DNA of 62,546 nucleotides, the filler included, from Collodictyon triciliatum (taxonomy: Eukaryota): the NCBI GenBank assembly GCA_043381765.1. It is 7 parts of 7 records of this genome, joined end to end, with 100 filler letters (N's around TTAATTAATTAA, not from the genome) between each part and the next. Parts side by side here need not be neighbours in the genome. Positions count along the whole stretch, not along the records: positions 40,014 to 49,911 come from JBHJMP010002859.1; 6 more parts are not named here. One strand, 5' to 3'. Shown piece by piece: positions 19,909-54,796 of the stretch (position 1 is its first letter; every line of letters starts with the position of its first letter). The notes beneath the pieces are model-generated. The model was not told the DNA's origin and searched no databases. It saw only the letters and a program-made list of their open reading frames with translations. The position numbers and the translations under genes are program-made.

Positions 19909-20008
19909 NNNNNNNNNNNNNNNNNNNNNNNNNNNNNNNNNNNNNNNNNNNNTTAATTAATTAANNNNNNNNNNNNNNNNNNNNNNNNNNNNNNNNNNNN
20001 NNNNNNNN

Positions 20009-29912: not shown

Positions 29913-30012
29913 NNNNNNNNNNNNNNNNNNNNNNNNNNNNNNNNNNNNNNNNNNNNTTAATTAATTAANNNNNNNNNNNNNNNNNNNNNNNNNNNNNNNN
30001 NNNNNNNNNNNN

Positions 30013-38728: not shown

Positions 38729-40099
38729 GCTGCTTGGCGCCTCGCGTTTCTTTTTGTCGGGCTGTAATGTTTGGTTTTAATTGGGTCAGTCTACTTATTT
38801 TTATTTTTTTTTTGTTTTTGCAAGAATGATCGTCCTCCTCAATCTCAGCCCCTGGCCTCGCGCTCAGACTAATCGATCAGCCTCTTGTGTAGGACGAGAA
38901 TGAGGACACAAGCGCGGTTGTGTTGCGCTTCCCTGTTTGCACTGGTGTGTGGGCTTTGAAATGCTTGGGGACTGGTGGCGTTGGACTTTATACGGCGGTG
39001 CGAAGCATGTTGTCTTAACCCTCTTTTGTTGCCAAACATTTTGATTTTGTGCTTGTGCCGGGAAACGGTCGAGACCCGAATAATTATGTTTTTGTGTGCG
39101 CGAGTAAAAACCCTTTAGCTATGTGAGCTTTTCTGTGTATTTCTGAGCGGGGGTGGAAATGGGAATTGAAGTGTTCCGTTCAAAAAGGTGTTTTTTTCTT
39201 TATGCCATTTGGTTTATTGGTATTTATATGCTGAGTTTTCATATTGATTTTTTTGTGTGTGTTCATCAGGGAATTGTTCGTTTTTTTTTTCGATTCGCAC
39301 AAAGAGAATATTTTCGGAAGCGAATCCTATTTGTTTTGCAAAGAAATTAAATGCAAAAAAAAAAAAGAATCAAATCAGAGGAATTTAAAATTGCTAGAAT
39401 TCACTTTCAAAAAAATCTGCAACCTGTTTTTTTTTTTTTGCGGATTCAAATTTAACAAAAGCAAAAAACAAAAGATTGGCGGTTTTTCTTGCGATTATTA
39501 CAAAATCAACGTACTTTCACAGTAAATTTGGTGCAAGCACAAAACATTTTCCAAATTTGCTTGCTCGTCTCAAACCGGATTCGGATGTGTCAGAACAAAT
39601 GCGAATTATATTCCACTTGCGGATACAGATCACCGATTTCGCTTGTGGTCGATTTTTCCCTTTTGGTATGTGGCCAAAGTTATGAGCAGTACTAGTGTGG
39701 AACCTCTGTATCAGAGGGTACAGCGAGTGATTGACCCGCCTTTGAATCTGCCCCGGTCATACTTCAACCCGACTTGCCCTTGGACATTGCTACATCCCAT
39801 TCTTGTGCTTCATCTCCTCACCTTTCTTACAAATACAAAATCACCCATTTCTCTGTTATCTGCTGTGATGCATTTTGTCATCGCTGACCAATCCATGTGC
39901 CTCTCACTTCTCTNNNNNNNNNNNNNNNNNNNNNNNNNNNNNNNNNNNNNNNNNNNNTTAATTAATTAANNNNNNNNNNNNNNNNNNNNNNNNNNNNNNN
40001 NNNNNNNNNNNNNCGAGCAGCTCATTCTCGCAGCTTTGCTCTCTCCTCAGAAATGAAACCGACCCAACTTCCCCTTGATGACATGACTTATTGGAATAG

Positions 40100-43000
40100 C
40101 CTATCACTCTCTATTATCCGTCGTCGCCGATGCTCTATTCGACGCTTTCCCACATCCTACTCAACTACGGAGTTCAGACCCAACTATCCCTATCGCCTGT
40201 GGCTAATGCTGTGGAGTCTACCTATGACGTAATTACACAACCCCAATATATTCCATTTCAATATTAGCTATTCACAATGCGCAAATAAAATTTAACCTTT
40301 CGATCGTGGATGATGTCGTTTTAAGTAAAGTAAAATAAGAAATAATATGCACATGCTTCATTAACGCCTCTTAAATTCCCAAGGTTCTGTTGGCTGTTGC
40401 TGCCAAACAATACTCTCTTGGAATCTCAGATTTCGCGACAACCCTTCGCAGTGAGTGGGGCCAACGCGCGAGACTAATCACAAAATCACAAACGTGAGTT
40501 TCTCGAGATTGAAATGATCATGGGGAATGAGATGTGCTATTATCGAATATTTTTTTTATATCCAACGTATACGCCCTACGATTTGCACGATTGAATGCCC
40601 CATATTGAGTTTGATAATATTTCAACATGGATTCACCAGGGCTGTGTCCGTTTCGGCACAGACCTTGAATAATGCGGTGAATGCTGGTCCAACAACTTTA
40701 ATCAACTTCATCGATATATCAAATTCTGACGCAGGTATGGTTCTTTTAAAAAAAAAACCTTATGATTTGATTGCAATGACCAAAATAAATACATTTGTTC
40801 TTAAAAGCAATCTTAATGGTTGCGTACTGTCACCCACTCACAAAAACCTACTTTATAATACCGAAAGGGTCCTCCTGGCCATGGGCATACTACTCCTGTA
40901 TCACAATCGATACATCTGCGCAAGGTTATTGTTCGTACCGTGGTCAACTTATCTCATTCATGGATTGGGCCCTTTCAAACCCGCAAGCCACTTCCAGTGC
41001 GCTGACCTATGGTTTCTCTCCCCTGAGTTTTAATTTGCAAGTAAACGCGCCTCTTATTTTTCTTCCTCTCGTAATTAGCATCATGTGCGTTTGTGAGAAC
41101 TGGCTTTAAACAAAGGAAAATTTCACACTCAACAAAATAGTGGAGCCTTTATTCAATTTCTCGTTCGTATAGAGTAACGTACTCATCGCGATAGAATCTT
41201 TCTTGTGTGACGGGAAGCCTGTTGTCACCGATCAGGCTGTCACTATCCAGGGAAGCGGTATCTTTTTCATGTTTATATGTTTCCTCCACTTATTACTAAT
41301 TGCCTTATCGAAAATGAAATGAGCTCGTGGGTGTCTCATTGCAAGAAGCTTCCTTTCCTGAATCAAACTCAGGTTACGCATCATTTATAAACTCGTAGGG
41401 GCCACTTTCCCCGCAACTTTCTACACTGAAGCGTGCAACTTATATCGCTTTGTGAATCCCAATTATATATTCTACTCTGTAAGTCCAGTACTTTGGCAAA
41501 TAGTTGATATGTTTCTAAAACATTCACAATATTTTTTATGAATTGTATGGAATAGTTTATATTTATCATATACCGAAACAACATTAGCCTGTTGGTTCTG
41601 GTCAAGGAATCAAGGATATCACGGCTTCGATTGCCGATTTTGCCGGAACCGATGCCCCGCTCACACCTGCTGAAGAAGAAAAAGGAAAGGTATTTAGAAG
41701 TCTACAGATTTTTTTTTTTTTTTTGCGAATATACCTCTCTTTGGGTTTCGCACGCACTTCATAAGTGCTCTCATTTTCTAGGTATTAAGAGAATATAATT
41801 ATCCTTTGATAGGATTTATCCACATTCCCAATCGTTGCTGGGGCAATTGTTATGGTCTACAACATACCAGGGGTATCAAACAATCCTGGTCTCCCTCGGC
41901 TGATTATTAGTCGTGAAGTTCTCGCCAATATATATTTAGGAGTCGTTGACACCTGGAACCACGCTGAAATAGTCAATTTGAATCCATCTCTACAGGGACT
42001 TTTACCTGACAAAAAAATTATTGTTGCTCAGAGACTAGATTCGAGTGGGACAACTTACATATTTTCTACGGCACTGAGCAGTTTCAGTTCGGCATTTGCA
42101 ACGTTTGTCTTTCAATCGAACCTAATTTCTGTTTGATATTAAATCTCACTGCTCACAACAGCAACCAAAATGGAAACCCCCCTCTCTTTTTTTTTAATTG
42201 TGCATAATATCTTTTGTTTTCGATAGTGCCGTTGGACCTAACAAAGTAATGAACCTTCCGATCGAGGCTACTCGTGTTCGAAAGGGAAGTGGCAATGCCG
42301 GTGTTCTTGCTGCTGTGGCTAGCAATGATTTCTGTATTGGTTATGTCGTACTCGGAGATGCGATGGGGAGTGCAATGGGAGGTGCTCTTCCCTACGCCGA
42401 ATTAATTAACAAGTCAGTAAAATAAAAGAATGTCAAATAATTTACAAATTATTTTGCTCTTATTATCAATCCTTATTACAAATAAGTAGACCTTTTCATC
42501 TTTAGATGTCATGTGTTTCAATCAAAGAATATGGACAGACATAACTACGAAATTAACTATTGTAATCGCAACATTCCCAGCATCAAATTTAAATTCTTTG
42601 TTGTGTGATTAAAAGGGCCGGAGCTACTGTGAGTGCCACACAGAGAACAATCCAAGCCGCGATTGACGCTTTTCCTGACGCTCCGTTGGTTAGTTATGCC
42701 ATCAAATAAAACACCTGCCTCTGTGACCTTTGCCCTATCAGTACTGATTGAGATACAATATTAAACTTTCTAGGTTTATGACATTGTGGATGCTCCTGGA
42801 GAATTTAGTTACCCAATCACAGGATTTACCTACGTCCTGATGCGAAATTCAACTGGTTCTTGCAATAAAATAAGACCAATATTGGACTTTTTGTTATGGT
42901 AACATTTAATGTTGGAAAGCGATTATATTCTATTTAAATTCGCATCATGCAAGTGTTTCTACAGTCAAAAAAAAATTCTAGTTTAAACGTGTGTGTTGAA

Positions 43001-46000
43001 AAAAATTTATAGACATTAGTGAGTTTAAAAGATTGACAAAACACATATATTGAATTAATTTGTAAATAATTTGTTAGGATGTTGAGCTCCCAGACCTCGT
43101 TGGAGACAGCTGGGGAGCTGGGGTTTGCCATTTTACCATCCCAGAAGTCTGCTGAGGTCCGAGCGCTTTTGAACAAGGTTTACCTTTTCTCAATCATTGC
43201 ATGTGAGTGAGAAGTCTTTGAGTGCCAACATATATAGGTAGTAACGATTCTGTATGGAAACTTAGATATTGTGTGATGGTATTCCTGCCATCCAAAACTG
43301 CGAGGCGGGTCAGAGATTTAATTCGGAGACATCCAGTTGTGAGGCTTGCCCGCCAGGGACCAAAGCAGTGGTGAGGGAATTGTATGCATCTCCAATTGTA
43401 TATTCAGTTGCCATCAATATTCAGTGTTGAAAGAATTACGGCCCACCAATTTGTATTGCTTAATCTTTTGATGTGAATCCCTACGTCGCCTATAGGGCCT
43501 TGATGCACCCTGTGAATTGTGCTCGCCTGGTACATTTTCAAAAGCTAAATCGACGTCTTGCACTCGATGTCCCTTCGGCACCTACACAAACTCAAGGTAA
43601 TTACGGCATTTTATTTCACATCACGTCCCAAAGAGATAAAATAATCATGAACCGAGTAATGATTAACCAAAATTAAAATGTCTAGTGGTTCAGCTGTGTG
43701 CACTAGTTGCCCATTCAACTCAGTAACATACATTACTGGTGGGAAATCCATCATGGACTGCGTTTGCACAAACATGACATTGCCCTCTGATACTTCGGTT
43801 TGGATATGCACATCTATTATTGACACACTTTGCAACCACACATTTTATTATGAACGATATGCCATTATTTCTACATCCAACTATTTACGCATTCCCCTAA
43901 AATGAATTTTCTAGCTTCTTGAAGGCGTTAACTCAACCCTTGAATGTGTACCTGCTGGCGTTGGCGATGTAATTCAGATAATTCATACCTTCAATAAATT
44001 CATACAATCGAGTCACATCCATGGTGTGTTAAATGTATGTTTGATTCATCTAGACTGGCGTATGTGCTATACTCAACGTTGACGCCGATGGAAACCCGAT
44101 GCCAGGATATTGGCTTAATTCGAAAAGTGAAGCAGTCCCATGTTTCCCTTCGTATGTAAGTCGCATTTTAACCTACGGTAAAGTAACGTTAGTTCCCACA
44201 GCATCTTGTTGGTCAAAGGCTCATATCAGAAAATGTGTAGGTTTGTTTGGGAGGGGAACAAAATTTGTGCAAAGATGGCTTTGCAGGAGAGGCCTGCTCT
44301 GAATGTGATACAGATTATGCTAGGGTGCGTCTCACACATATTTCCCAGTCCCATTCTTTTCATGACGATTTTAACAGTTTACCCGCTATTAAATCCCATA
44401 GAAAGTTTCTGATTGGTTTTAATATTCAGGTAGGCCAAGACTGCATCAAGTGCGGTGGCTCGTCTGCGTTTGGTGCCATCATCATCTTTCTCGTGAGTTG
44501 TGCATTTTGCTATTTTTGTTCAAGGTGCCAAGTCCACACCCTGGAAGCGACCTTGAATTTCCTTCAGTTTGCCTCGGTTCTCTCCATCATGCGAGTGCAA
44601 TGGACTGACGAGTGAGTTTATGAGACTGATTCATTTATCTTCCCCATGCAAAGTTAATGAAAAGTAATGGCTCAGAACACTCTTTTGCTAATACCACCTC
44701 AAAGCCTCCTGTCGGTCCTGTACAACTCTCTCCCGGCAAACTGGATTGTGTATCTTTTTGGTTCAAGATGCGATGCCGACTTTGAGTATGTGAATAAAGA
44801 CTTTTGAAGTATATGTGCTCTTGTTACGAACAAATGGGCATTATTGACTCTTATTCTTCATCATGCAGCTATTTCTTCGGATTCGTCACACGCATTCTTC
44901 TGCCGTTCCTTAGCATCGGTTTCTTTTCTACTTTATTCTTGCTGTACATACCTCTGAGAGCTTTGTTGCTCTTGATTCTGCCTCCAGATTCTTCATTGCG
45001 GGACACTCTGGAGAGGAATTTCGCTAGCAAGGTTAGTCGTGTAGTTTAGCTTTAAAGCTTCGTACAATAATTCTTCACTCCGGTTGTGACCTTTATAATA
45101 ATATCAATATTGAAGGTGTTACTATCTTCTCATCACGTGGTCTCCACCGTATTAATTCAAGCTATCTTCTATTCCAACGAGGTGTGTGTTACGCTTTGAG
45201 ATATTTTTTTATGATTTTTGTAAGAATCGCCATTATCCCTGCCTTTCTCATAAGAAAACAAATAAACCACATGTCCAACCCTCTAATTCATCCGCACCGT
45301 TTGCAAATTTACAGGCGAGTTTTGAGTATTTTAAGTGCATTGGTGGAACAGAACAAGATGTCCTTCGTGCTGATGCATCTGTCTCTTGTAAAAAAGGGTC
45401 ATGGGACGAGTAAGCCTGATTGTTCTATCCCAACCCTGACTTATCCCCATTGGATTATATCTCACTCATCTGCTTGTCTCCTCTTTAAGACTGTTAACAT
45501 GCACTTTAATCAGCTTGAGACCCATCGCTATTCTCGGAATTATTCTCCACATGGTTGTCGTTCCTGTGTCCATCATTCGTGTAGCATACAAAGGAACTCT
45601 TGCTAAAGTATCTGACCACGAGTTTGCAAATCGCTATGGCCTCCTTATGTCCAGATTCAAGTGACCGCTCTTTCATCAAGCATATTTTGCTATATTTTGT
45701 GTGGCATAAAGGAGTTTGGCTGTTGATAACTCATCACATATTAAACCACTTATCCCAGGCACTCTCATATTTGGTGGGAAGGCTTCGTGGCTGTCCGCAG
45801 AGTCTTGGTCTATGTTCTGATTGTTTACTTAGGGGACGACCCGCACAAGTGCGTGGCGGTTGTGTCCTCGATTCTGTTGCTCTCTCTTGTTTTCCAGCTG
45901 CAGCAGAAGCCATTCGCAACAGTGAGAGTTCATGTTTTAAAAAAAAATTAAAGAACCAGAAGGATAATAAAAAAAAAAATAAGCGTGTATAATTCAATCA

Positions 46001-46675
46001 CTTATCTGTTATTTTTTTATTTTCTCCGCTGTTGCTTTTCGTAGTCCACAGCGGCCTTTGTGGAGAACTTCCTTTTGGTTTGCAATTACGGACTGCTACA
46101 AGCGGTCTTGATGCAGCAACACCGCGAAGAATCGTCCTCTTCAAGCACAAGCTCTGCTGGATTGGCCATCTTTTCTATCGCCATCGTTGTGGGAGGTATG
46201 GCGTCTAATCAGTATTTCAAAAATCTATTTTCATATTTTGTTTGTCTATTTCATGCTTCCACATTATTTTGTTGCATTTTATCCTTGCTGCAACATCCTC
46301 ATGTGAAGACTTTGCTGATGTTTTGGGCAGGTGTCATCAACTTCTGCGAGATACTTGCTCATCTTGTCCCATCCCAAGCAATGACGCTGAAAGACCCCGT
46401 CGCCTTTGTGAGTTGACAAATTCAAACATCAAGACTGGTTAATGACAGTTATGATATATCGCAATACGAGATAACGGATTTTCATCTTCCTTGCGATAGA
46501 TTGCTCCGCCCTGGTTGCTTGGCGCTGGTGACTTGGTCGAGAAGCAAAAGCAAGGTACGCTTTCATTTTTTTCTTTTTATTCATGACAGTGAAACAAGCC
46601 CTACTTCGATATGTTCTCTGTCTTGACCATTTATCCAAATCGCACACATAACTAGGCCATGGGCGAGTCCGCTAA
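40100..46675 (+). CDS. Tandem PstS-like periplasmic-binding domains + Cys-rich stalk + ~9-TM TRP-like membrane domain; 5' truncated at scaffold start
   Basis: More than 25 GT-AG exons splice in frame: IQGS|GATFP, PVGSGQG, DFAGTD, RLDSSGTT, SYPITGFTY; CEACPPG/CSPGTF/CPFGTY/CTSCP; PGYW; NFLQFAS; RYGLLMSRFK|HSHIWWE..RR; QKPF. Confidence 0.85.
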
Positions 46676-47150
46676 AGAAAGGTGCTGTCTGTTCCTAGCC
46701 CCATCTCTCTCGATAGGAACGCTTCAACTGAAAAAAAGATACCCTTCTTCTTCTCTTATATCTAGCCATTTACACAATCGCGGAAAAAAAAAAGGGAGAA
46801 ATTAAGGAAAAGGATGAACAAGAAACCAGCCCTCTCTTTCTCTTTCTTTCCCACCCCACTTCTGTATATACTGATTAAAGAAAATATCGAATGAAAACGT
46901 AGTGAAAAATATCATCCCATTGAATTCGAATATTGGTGTGGTGCTTGCTGAAAAGATAAGGGATAGAGAAAAACTGCATGGTGTTGAGGTGTCAACGAAA
47001 TCGCTATTCAGGATTTATCTCAACTCAAAGCTCTTCGTCTTTCACAGACTGAATACCAAAAGAATGGGGAACGATATACCCATCGACAGTGGAACCTTTC
47101 TGATGGAGACACATCGAACAGGTGATTGGTTTTGTAACTCTGCCGCATTC

Positions 47151-49701
47151 TTAGGCCTTGGGTGTTCGTCGGGCGACACTGCGCAAATGAAGACGAATAT
47201 GGGATGTGAATTAGTATGTCTCTTAGGATTTGATTGAATTATTTTCTCGTCACACTGTTCAACATTATGAAGGGGGAAAAAACGTCAGCTTCTTCTCGCT
47301 TTTCCCATATGTTGTGTGAAAAGTTTGGCCGCTATCTCTCTTCATTCACACAAAGAAATATTTGTCTATTCTCAGTCTGTTTCTAATGTAAATATTACGA
47401 AGAGGACGTATCCTTGAGGTATCCTGGCGTGTCTCCTTTCTATAGTCACAGCCATGGATTAAGATAAATCGATATTTTCCCGTTTTTCTTTTTAGCGTTG
47501 ATTTTCATCGAAAATATGTATGTATAGATATAAAGGCGTAGAAAAATCGAAATCTCTGGTATTTCTTTGTCATAAGTTCGACTACATGTGTGAACCATAC
47601 CGCAGTCGCATTGTCCAATCCTGAGGCTCCCTTCCTCGCAGCCCTGCTACTGGGGAGAGATTCACGGTCTCGGCTGTGTTGCGAATATTGAGAGGCTGTA
47701 TCTGTGTGTGACTTCCCGCTCTGGTTTGACTTTGGGGAGACGCTACTGGGGACCTTGAAGCCGGTCGAGGATTTGCTCTGTGACTCAGTGGATAACTTTG
47801 CAGCTGTTGCTTTGGCTCGCAAGATAGACGAGCGGGTCTGTGTGGGCTGCGGTGCAATCCGACTCGCTCGAGAGTTGGCCCGTGATACCTCGCTAGTCTC
47901 GCTGGGTTCATATTTGCTCCTTGAAGTCACAGGCACACTATATCGACCATGGTCCTCGTGCTGTTCTTCGGTTTGACGCGACGAATGAAGCCCGTACTTT
48001 ATCAAATGCTCTTCGCTGTCCTCTCCTATCAAGAAAAGAAGGGGGAAGAAACATTAACATTCGAAAGTTTTTTTTTCCTTTATTCGATTCAAAGTATTAA
48101 CATTCGAAAGTTGATATCGACAGTGTCCCTTGGATTAAGACATATATGAACGTATTTACAGTCACATATACGATTTTTATTCTTGGAAAAATTACTATTG
48201 TCGTAGAATGTGGCTTTCGTAATGAAAATCAATATGCAGAAGAGTTAACCTGAAAGGTCGAGATAATATTGTCTACTGGTTTGGGTGTTGATGGCTGGAA
48301 TGTCCTTCGTCTGCTCAGCATCTGATTTCTTTTGTGACAACTCACATAACCTCGACTCAATTGTTTCGATGGAATGCGCGAGCTCGTCGACTTTGGTTCG
48401 CAGGGTTCGTTGTAGGATGGCCTCTCGTTTGCGTGCGACTTCATCCTGTGACTCATCTTTTGTGCCTTCAGCAACATCAGATTCGCCGTAGGTTGGTGTA
48501 CTTTGTGAAGGGGAATTAACTTTGCCTTCCAGGTCTCCAGTTGAGTCTCTGGGCTCGTCGTGGACACGTAAGGTTGCCAGTTTGAAGTTCCTGGACGCTC
48601 CTCTAGGTGGGAGGCCTTCTTTGTAGAAAGAAGGTACAAAAGTGTATTATGTATTGCAGAAAGGTCTTTGAATCGAATAAAGGAAAAAAAATGTATTGCA
48701 GAAAGGCATGGTTCTATCGTCTACGTTTATCATACTGTGGAGGTATTTCAATCATTTGTCGAATTTATCCATTTATCTTTGGTTACGTTTTCAGAGAGGC
48801 ATACCATTTGTATTATTTGTATCGGCCATAAATGACGCTGTCTGTGAGAAATCTGTGGCCGCGTTAGCAGTAATCGAGGTTGATGTCGAAGTTGTGGCGA
48901 TTGTTTGCATATTTGTTGAGGCTATCTTCGCTTCGTTCCTTCGAGAGGAAAGTAAAAGGCAATTTTTTTTGTTAGTATATTCAATACTGCAAGTAATATA
49001 TTTTAATTTCCTCGCTTTAAATCGAAGAAAAAGGGAAAATGCGTATAATTGCTTCCAATAGCTAGTTGAAAGGTAGTAGAAATCATAAAAAGAGAAAGAA
49101 AGAGAATTACTGCTTGGATTTGTCTTCCGGTTGCGTTGGCTTGGCGAAAAAGAAAATGAATGGTCAAAACTGATTGATAGGTTGTATGTATTTTATAAAA
49201 GAAAGCTAATTGATTCCATAATAACCTAATATGTAATGTTGTAGCTTTTGAAAGACATAAACCAAAACAATAGAAAGTCACAAAAGGCGATGAGAGAATG
49301 TATTCAAAGTTTTTTATGAACACCTTGGATTCACCAGAAGTAGTAATTTTAGCGGTTGGTGGCATAATCATAATCGGTTGTGTGTACGACCCGTGGTATC
49401 CCCCTGGGTGGTTAAATGATTTTAATTACATGGTTTGAAATCAACAGTGAAGCACATCGTCAAAAGAATAGATCCTAGAGCGATATGGCATCATATGGTA
49501 AACTTAAGGTAAGAACTGAGGAATGAAACGGTTTTGTTGCAAATACAACCCTTTGATTGTATGGAAAGAAAATAGAGTCGAAATTTAATATAAAGAAACC
49601 ATACTTGTCACACTCAACGATCGGTAAATATTTGTTTGTGGAGGTGCGGTATTAATATGTTGAATGGCATTAGGTGGAAGCATAACACATGGTTCCACCC
49701 T
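47151..49701 (-). CDS. Low-complexity Ser-rich protein with short coiled coil; 5' truncated
   Basis: Exons include EVARKREAILQRTLRTKVDELAHSIETIESRL, the 47584-48030 ORF, KGDTPGYLKDTSSS and VARRTPKA*. Confidence 0.6.
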
Positions 49702-49812
49702 TTCAGATATAAAATGCACAGCTCATAGTTAACAATTGCTATTCAATAAAAATAAATGTAAACATGTATGTATTCTTTCTCTTTTTTTTTGAGGATATGA
49801 TAGTGGTAACCT

Positions 49813-49911
49813 GATGTGTGATGTGTGATGTGTGATGTGTGATGTGTGATGTGTGATGTGTGATGTGTGATGTGTGATGTGTGATGTGTGATGTGTGATG
49901 TGTGATGTGTG
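49813..49911. repeat. (GATGTGT)n microsatellite at scaffold end
   Basis: Direct observation. Confidence 0.95.
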
Positions 49912-50811
49912 NNNNNNNNNNNNNNNNNNNNNNNNNNNNNNNNNNNNNNNNNNNNTTAATTAATTAANNNNNNNNNNNNNNNNNNNNNNNNNNNNNNNNN
50001 NNNNNNNNNNNTTTCACCATCCTTTTCGACACCTTGCGCCATCAAAGCAGTATTCCCTCTACTACATCCAATCAATACCACCCGTCCCTTTTTTTTTTCT
50101 CATACTCGTGGGACACTATCACGCGTCCCCAAAAGAAATCCATGCGTCTCTTTTAAAACCACAAGAACACCTCTCTTTTCCCTTTTTCCCTTGCTTTTTA
50201 TATTTATCCCTGTTTTTCTTTTTTCTTTCTCCCACACATCCCCACCTACTTTGGAACTACTTGCCTGATGGTTGAATGAAAGATTTTTGAGACGGCCTCG
50301 ACAACAATCCTCAAAATGAAAATGTCTGCCCCTGGGAAATGATACCTTAAAAAGAAGTTATGTGAATACATTTCTGAGCGTCCAGTAATAGAAAGCGCCG
50401 CAAATTATTCGGCAGGCTTCCAACGACAAATGGTTGTGACGCAAGAATCAAAAGTCGACCAGATCGCCACGAAGACCAGGGAACCGAAGCGATCTCAACG
50501 CAAAAGACAGGGATTATCGTGTGGCACTCTTTTTTTTCTCTTTTTGCTCGATCTGCCCGTACTCGCTACCAGATCAAATCGAGAACGAAATCGACCCATG
50601 AAAATTTTTTGTCTTGTGTTTGCTCAGGATCTGTAAAAAAAAAAAAAAAAGGGAGCTTTTTTCAAAGTCATTTTCTACGCGTTTAATCTTGGGCGTTGTT
50701 GAACAATAAACGTTGTATTATCTCCCTAGTTGAGGTGCATTATCTCATTTTCGCCCACACCCACTTGTCTTTTCCTCCTGTGAGTTGAAAAAAGTTTTTG
50801 TATTAAGGGCT

Positions 50812-54689: not shown

Positions 54690-54796
54690 CTTTTTTNNNN
54701 NNNNNNNNNNNNNNNNNNNNNNNNNNNNNNNNNNNNNNNNTTAATTAATTAANNNNNNNNNNNNNNNNNNNNNNNNNNNNNNNNNNNNNNNNNNNN

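Follow-up and report, generated by a model that had tools for sequence, protein, structure and literature searches.

The DNA analysed here (the window) is a 62,546-nt stretch from the genome assembly of the freshwater heterotrophic flagellate Collodictyon triciliatum (GCA_043381765.1). It consists of concatenated parts and is not contiguous, and its part at 40014–49911 (JBHJMP010002859.1) contains an expressed, spliced nuclear gene that encodes, in this order, a degenerate PstS-like domain, a second PstS-like domain with a conserved phosphate-binding site, a Cys-rich stalk, a multipass membrane domain and a short tail. The product would be a large membrane protein, probably placed at the cell surface. 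The original prediction had proposed one in-frame spliced gene at 40100–46675 encoding an extracellular phosphate sensor, and the model assembled here bears out the gene: 29 exons on the plus strand span 40100–46675 and comprise 3,306 nt, with 1,101 codons and a single terminal stop (46673–46675), and all 28 introns are GT..AG, 80–203 nt in length with a median of ~105 nt. In the unspliced DNA, the plus-strand stop-to-stop open reading frames (ORFs) are short stretches of coding sequence whose translations look PstS-like, Cys-rich or hydrophobic. The model was built by enumerating frame-keeping GT..AG introns, picking among them by collinearity with a protein of Diphylleia rotans described below, and then adjusting the result to RNA. 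What needs amending in the earlier interpretation is the 5' end and the number of PstS domains; the gene, its single transcript, its host origin and the ligand site of domain 2 all stand.

A search of public sequencing runs found nine that hold part of the stretch, each with a small share of its sampled words, and four were compared with it: X7, a lake metatranscriptome; X2, a freshwater metagenome; and X1 and X4, which were treated as cDNA (the run type itself being a guess) because their contigs skip introns exactly and end at 46897 in A runs. We take the loose ends of the X1 and X4 contigs to resemble a template-switch cDNA primer. At least 17 of the 28 introns are directly confirmed by RNA, 15 among the joints listed and two from adjoining contig pieces (40229–40383 from pieces of X7 record 15 and 42103–42226 from pieces of X1 record 1). 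Among the 15 listed joints equal to model introns, 14 are as first predicted, and the RNA places the start of exon 24 at 45514 instead of 45490 (acceptor end at 45513, not 45489). For three introns (40494–40639, 40735–40867 and 42413–42615) support comes from loose ends of 9–24 nt, for seven from RNA record lengths equal to the summed exon lengths alone, and one (42689–42773), with no RNA in view, is placed by collinearity with the Diphylleia protein. The RNA has holes from which we draw nothing, at 40250–40479 and 42550–42779 in X1 and over most of the 5' half in X4. The X2 DNA contigs run across exon-intron borders (for example at 40662–40812 and 43787–43937) and were not counted as independent, as the window may derive from that very sample.

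The same contigs settle how the parts of the gene are joined. One X1 contig (record 2, 1,099 nt) begins with the last 18 nt of exon 11, in PstS domain 2, and runs through the stalk to exon 21 in the membrane domain; another (record 3) overlaps it by ~30 nt and continues as far as the poly(A) tail. A single transcript thus carries both the PstS and the membrane parts, as had been claimed. In two runs, spliced contigs ending in poly(A) connect the PstS exons with those of the stalk and the membrane domain, and the end that X1 and X4 share defines a 3' untranslated region at 46676–46897 (+), with the poly(A) addition site at 46897. Domain 1 has RNA joints in X7 record 15 and X1 record 1, and joints within the stalk are seen in X1 and X4. 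Among the 27 listed differences between the RNA and the window, 14 are synonymous and 13 non-synonymous, a ratio that suggests constraint on the gene.

With the largest PstS exon as query, a word search returned, among bacterial PstS, a 732-aa eukaryotic transcript protein, P0001, whose cluster belongs to Diphylleia rotans (EukProt, CRuMs) and includes a 976-aa isoform, P0219; this is the closest relative found. By tblastn, P0001 and the window are collinear over 40641–44792. At its N-terminus P0219 has a hydrophobic segment resembling a signal peptide, and then a complete PstS-like domain 1; window exon 1 (40100–40228) aligns to its residues 167–210, in the middle of that domain, so that ~170 N-terminal residues are missing from the window gene. 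The span first assigned to the gene is therefore right at its end, where 46675 closes the stop codon, and not at its start: position 40100 is an acceptor inside domain 1, and the gene is 5'-truncated. Part of the missing region may lie at the end of the preceding part, where an ORF at 39526–39912 (+) aligns to P0219 residues 9–65 with a Smith-Waterman score of 46, against 27 ± 4.5 for shuffles and a score reached by 2 of 1000 of them; tblastn over the whole window gives this match at E 9.9 only, and there is no in-frame ATG in the ORF before the matched stretch. We list 39640–39913 (+) as a possible, weakly matched 5' exon that would cover the signal-peptide region and the start of domain 1. 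The two parts may be adjacent in the genome, separated by a gap, and the strandless linker that joins them here (39914–40013, N44-TTAATTAATTAA-N44) would hide ~80–100 aa of domain 1. The Diphylleia transcripts have a peculiarity at their other end: P0001 and P0219 share an odd C-terminus from the point that matches the window exon 20/21 border, and a third isoform, P0220, ends earlier, inside the stalk. The short isoforms may reflect a retained intron or a real short form that is merely anchored.

An artefact (a chimaeric assembly, or a bacterial contaminant fused with a membrane gene of a eukaryote) or a dead gene would be suggested by the concatenated parts with their linkers and by the 42% identity of domain 2 to the best bacterial PstS. 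This is scarcely credible: introns cut into the PstS domains, independent RNA contigs have these introns removed and continue into the membrane exons, the domain order is common to a second species, and the open frame extends for 1,101 codons. The view that this is a host gene and not a contaminant, which had been argued from its many introns, is upheld by 28 of them and by an orthologue in D. rotans that is 56% identical in domain 2.

The PstS fold that had been recognised in the sequence proves to be two PstS-like domains, the second a full match and the first degenerate. The C-terminal two thirds of domain 1 occupy exons 1–5 (40100–41232, +), detected with a custom profile and with ligands lost, and domain 2, with an intact predicted phosphate site, occupies exons 5–12 (41233–43265, +), detected with the custom profile, Pfam and PDB chains. 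The custom profile, made from 206 bacterial PstS and E. coli PstS, scores domain 2 of the window at 316 bits (1.6e-98) and the partial domain 1 at 44.3 bits (independent E-value 5.8e-16); in P0219 the values are 318 bits for domain 2 and 107 bits for domain 1. Pfam PBP_like_2 (PF12849) matches the exon at 41813–42136 at 5.3e-9 (36.7 bits against a cut-off of 27), and matches P0219 at 124.5 bits in two stretches. The alignment of P0001 to E. coli PstS (1ixh) covers residues 4–306 at 9e-50, and single window exons match PDB PstS chains, with values of 1e-12 to 1e-14 on one exon; a PDB search with the 26-aa exon that carries the GATFP motif gave no match.

In the profile alignment, domain 2 of both the window and Diphylleia keeps nine of nine E. 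coli positions (T10, F11, S38, D56, R135, D137, S139, G140 and T141), the list of E. coli ligand residues being that of the literature. All the ligand positions named in the original prediction are found there, and the single-exon PDB alignments agree. On the plus strand the codons are those of T200/F201 (41404–41409), S228 (41597–41599), D246 (41651–41653) and R332-L-D-S-S-G-T338 (42032–42052). In solved PstS, phosphate is bound by eight residues, of which one key Asp provides anion selectivity, and the site fully encloses free orthophosphate (PMC5381212). Conservation of this site suggests that domain 2 binds phosphate. In one X1 contig, 12 nt are missing at 42364; the frame is kept, and the 4 aa lost belong to a short repeat that neither Diphylleia nor E. 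coli PstS has.

Domain 1 presents another picture. In Diphylleia it has N, E and T at the positions of D137, S139 and G140, so that one of the four aligned ligand positions (T141) is kept; the other five, in the N-terminal ligand region, are unaligned. The window stretch YYPSSPML, which tblastn aligns to Diphylleia domain 1, is equally divergent. Between the window and Diphylleia, domain 1 is 54% identical; within the protein, domain 1 and domain 2 share 26%, and both close with a similar Cys-Asp-Gly-x-Pro linker. Tandem PstS also occur in bacterial metagenomes, as P0099 (675 aa) and P0135 (719 aa), each with two full-scoring domains of 348–422 bits, and such a protein could be the source of the eukaryotic pair; they are like the present gene in having two PstS domains in one chain and differ in that both copies are full PstS and neither a stalk nor a membrane domain follows. 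A metagenome scan with the domain 1 motif alignment gave 122 pattern matches and no relatives.

Exon 13 to the start of exon 19 (43266–44459, +) encode a stalk of ~200 aa, an extracellular-type Cys-rich module with CxxCPxG repeats of the Ephrin_rec_like/TNFR kind followed by a laminin-EGF-like juxtamembrane module. The repeats had been noted from the start, and they resolve into four CxxC(P/S)xG-type units, with Ephrin_rec_like (PF07699) above its cut-off in the exon at 43496–43594 (28.4 bits against 23.1) and at 21.9 bits in the next exon. The stalk of P0001 reaches 41.7 bits with the same family, and the Diphylleia stalk gives the same picture overall. Below cut-off are TNFR_ELAPOR1_6th, NCD3G (21 bits against 38.9), EGF_laminin and DUF7630. 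The last of these recurs in both species, at E 0.04–0.12, in the juxtamembrane Cys module (44241–44324, +; P0001 residues 581–621), and the repeated weak matches are a possible clue to a wider family.

Beyond the stalk lies the membrane domain (exons 19–27, 44460–46362, +), a stretch of ~350 aa located by its hydropathy peaks, all of whose joints are seen in RNA. Between aa 713 and 1062, Kyte-Doolittle averaging over 19 aa gives six strong segments (≥1.6) and five that are weaker; the range of 9–11 hydrophobic segments after the ectodomain accommodates the earlier estimate of about nine. The RYGLL..F....WWE....RR and QKPF patterns reported before can both be read, at 45632–45660 and 45759–45801 for the former and at 45901–45912 for the latter. 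If the N-terminus is outside, a two-Cys loop (aa 865–898) would also be outside and the basic loop with RYGLL...WWE...RR (aa 922–961) would be inside, an arrangement that would fit 9 or 11 helices and a cytosolic tail. That tail (46363–46675, +) is 39 aa plus the stop, and its last intron (46555–46655) is seen in X1 and X4. It is as short as had been described; no kinase, cyclase or other catalytic domain was found in it or in the loops by Pfam scans of the exons.

Which family the membrane domain belongs to is harder to say, and the original suggestion of a TRP-like (PF06011-type) domain remains a lead. Nine membrane exons in the right frame (22–60 aa each; E ≤ 10, part at E ≤ 1) matched neither PF06011 nor another membrane family in Pfam, a word search with the exon at 45491–45658 (a query that includes eight intronic residues) found no match, and exons 24 and 25 drew from the PDB either noise, in the form of zinc-finger and cyclin matches, or no match. 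In the ESM Atlas, exon 25 falls nearest to three unnamed clusters at 0.94–0.96, and the nearest named cluster is PF06011 TRP, at 0.84 with 144 shared features, the name being carried by 13% of its members. The PF06011 profile has 426 positions and the membrane part roughly 390 aa, a similar size, and we take ~9–10 transmembrane helices after an extracytosolic N-terminal domain to be typical of PF06011. The known fungal members (Flc1-3; S. pombe Pkd2, Trp1322 and Trp663; A. nidulans TrpR) likewise combine a large extracytosolic N-terminal domain with a multipass domain of similar size, and differ in that their head is ML-like and lipid-binding where PstS stands here, in that the tail is short here, and in that the present domain has no HMM match. 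The fungal proteins are tied to Ca2+ homeostasis (PMC8618638).

Taken in order, then, the protein would comprise a signal peptide (seen in Diphylleia only), domain 1, domain 2, a stalk of ~200 aa, a membrane domain of ~350 aa and a tail of 39 aa. Because the tail holds no enzyme, the membrane domain itself would have to be the output. We tentatively regard phosphate sensing as plausible, the protein acting as an extracellular orthophosphate receptor whose output is that membrane domain, with a confidence that falls a little short of even. The gene, its splicing, its expression, its domain order and the conserved site are shown, and phosphate binding, outward orientation, transmission of a signal and the nature of the output are inferred. 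In such a receptor, phosphate would close the flytrap of domain 2, the rigid stalk would pass the movement to the membrane domain, perhaps aided by the pseudo-domain 1, and the output would be either a TRP-like (PF06011-type) cation pathway or coupling to a partner. More specifically, the protein could be a phosphate-gated receptor-channel. Its PstS flytrap would probably have come in by gene transfer and then been duplicated, leaving one active copy and one pseudo copy, and the stalk would couple it to a TRP-like cation-conducting domain. This version is possible and at present doubtful.

Several observations weigh against the receptor reading. The window gene lacks its N-terminus, and its own signal peptide is unseen; an X1 contig (depth 7) is one nucleotide short at 41638, within a run of T, and this loss would break the frame if real, though an error or a difference between strains may explain it. 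None of the three Diphylleia isoforms extends past the second transmembrane segment (TM2), and window and Diphylleia are only 23% identical in the TM1–TM2 region (in a high-scoring segment pair from tblastn). No significant homologue of the membrane domain emerged in any test run, exon-level tests being weak; the Atlas value of 0.84 is below that tool's threshold of 0.9, and its ten best named matches share one family, a pattern also seen in a third of shuffled proteins.

In bacteria PstS serves transport, and the protein could instead be a phosphate scavenger, a membrane-tethered high-affinity trap that, like the lipid-anchored PstS of Gram-positive bacteria, would enrich phosphate at the cell surface and hand it to its own membrane domain or to a partner transporter. 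The phosphate site of domain 2, intact in sequence, would suit such a role; tandem PstS exist in bacteria (P0099 and P0135), the Pfam scans revealed no signalling domain, and the Diphylleia isoforms end soon after TM2, so that a merely anchored form may exist. What makes scavenging rather unlikely is that the membrane exons match no ABC (ATP-binding cassette) permease, PHO4/PiT or MFS family in Pfam scans, that a rigid stalk of ~200 aa would hold the site at a long distance from the membrane, more apt for signalling than for hand-over, and that a domain of 9–11 helices is needless for a mere anchor.

The layout also recalls the cysteine repeat modular proteins (CRMPs) of apicomplexans and ciliates, which are described as proposed sensors with a variable binding head, EGF-receptor-type Cys repeats, 5–9 transmembrane segments and a cytosolic C-terminus (PMC9670195). 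A contact or prey sensor of this type would bind phosphorylated surface polymers, or phosphate leaked by prey, through its head, and its stalk and multipass domain would trigger exocytosis or phagocytosis, a role also proposed for the CRMPs; that Diphyllatea are described as heterotrophic protists (PMC11603278) would agree with this. The likeness in head, Cys repeats and multipass domain is one of described architecture only, the CRMP heads are MAR and Kringle domains, and the enclosed orthophosphate site of solved PstS argues against polymer ligands (PMC5381212); we consider this account unlikely.

The class C G-protein-coupled receptors (GPCRs), such as CaSR and mGluR, have the same logic, with a binding-protein flytrap that is joined by a Cys-rich spacer to a multipass membrane domain. 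The chytrid Spizellomyces is reported to have a putative Glutamate-family GPCR, SPPG_06488, with a PBP_like_2 domain (PMC3251606); its head thus belongs to the same Pfam family, and it is the nearest precedent. A divergent class C-like receptor, with a heptahelical core and G-protein signalling, would share this logic, and the stalk does give weak NCD3G matches (E 0.025–0.036 in Diphylleia, in addition to the 21 bits in the window). This reading is nonetheless very improbable: NCD3G is far under its cut-off and overlaps the better Ephrin_rec_like match, no exon matches 7tm_3, and ~350 aa with 9–11 hydrophobic segments differs from seven in ~250 aa. The present protein departs from class C receptors further in its stalk, which is of the Ephrin_rec_like/TNFR type, and in having two tandem heads per chain where those receptors have a dimer of single heads.

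Set beside the remaining known systems, the receptor proposed here combines familiar elements. Its domain 2 aligns over its full length with bacterial PstS (1ixh, PF12849), including the selectivity Asp; PstS is there a free or lipid-anchored ABC subunit that acts together with PstC, PstA and PstB in an importer, whereas here two copies occur, the first of them degenerate, spliceosomal introns split the coding sequence, and a stalk and a multipass domain are covalently attached. In ionotropic glutamate receptors (iGluRs) and plant GLRs, a single polypeptide holds both a membrane pore and the bacterial-type binding protein that gates it. The present protein shares with them the union of such a binding protein with a membrane part, and differs in the class of binding protein and its ligand and in topology, as the pore of iGluRs and GLRs is inserted within the binding domain and nothing of this kind is seen here. 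The locus thus extends the known theme of receptors headed by binding proteins and is not a new kind of system. In a search with P0001, which scored 7,999 candidates of 402–1,281 aa (959 at E ≤ 0.001), PBP_like_2 together with Ephrin_rec_like occurs, among the 120 matches listed, only in P0001 itself; among 98 matches to the PstS exon it is likewise confined to P0001. The other listed matches are ordinary PstS, the few that are named coming from Anaerolineae, Acidimicrobiales and Gaiellaceae, and since bacterial PstS crowds these searches, distant fused relatives could be missed. Searches of full-text articles gave no description of the PstS-stalk-multipass architecture.

To our knowledge, the means by which eukaryotes detect orthophosphate outside the cell, in contrast to the phosphate status within it, are still poorly characterised. 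The gene provides a directly testable candidate, with a putative ligand site that can be read from sequence and an output domain without an enzyme. In it, the design of a binding protein plus a membrane module would have been invented again, with a PstS-type head and a membrane domain that is neither 7TM nor iGluR, in the little-studied CRuMs lineage. Were the protein a phosphate-gated receptor-channel, external orthophosphate would directly open or close an ion pathway and in this way influence how a deep-branching eukaryote behaves or maintains its phosphate homeostasis. No other eukaryotic receptor would then precede it as one dedicated to extracellular orthophosphate with a defined high-selectivity site, and its head would be the third independent one recruited from periplasmic binding proteins, after those of iGluRs and class C GPCRs. 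Should it be only a tethered scavenger, it would still be a clean case of a bacterial-type transport subunit that has been domesticated, intronised and duplicated in a eukaryote.

The rest of the window has the following features. Identical N44-TTAATTAATTAA-N44 linkers lie at 9906–10005, 19909–20008, 29913–30012, 39914–40013, 49912–50011 and 54697–54796; with a spacing of ~10 kb and parts of ~9.9 kb, genes at part ends are cut. The G+C content is 39–44%. No paralogue of the gene was found elsewhere in the window. Downstream of its 3' end, at 47505–49425 on the minus strand, are four ORFs of 133–182 aa, one of them serine-rich and none with a Pfam match, and in another part an ORF at 136–1113 (+) carries a Folliculin domain (Pfam 5.6e-17) and is an ordinary eukaryotic gene.

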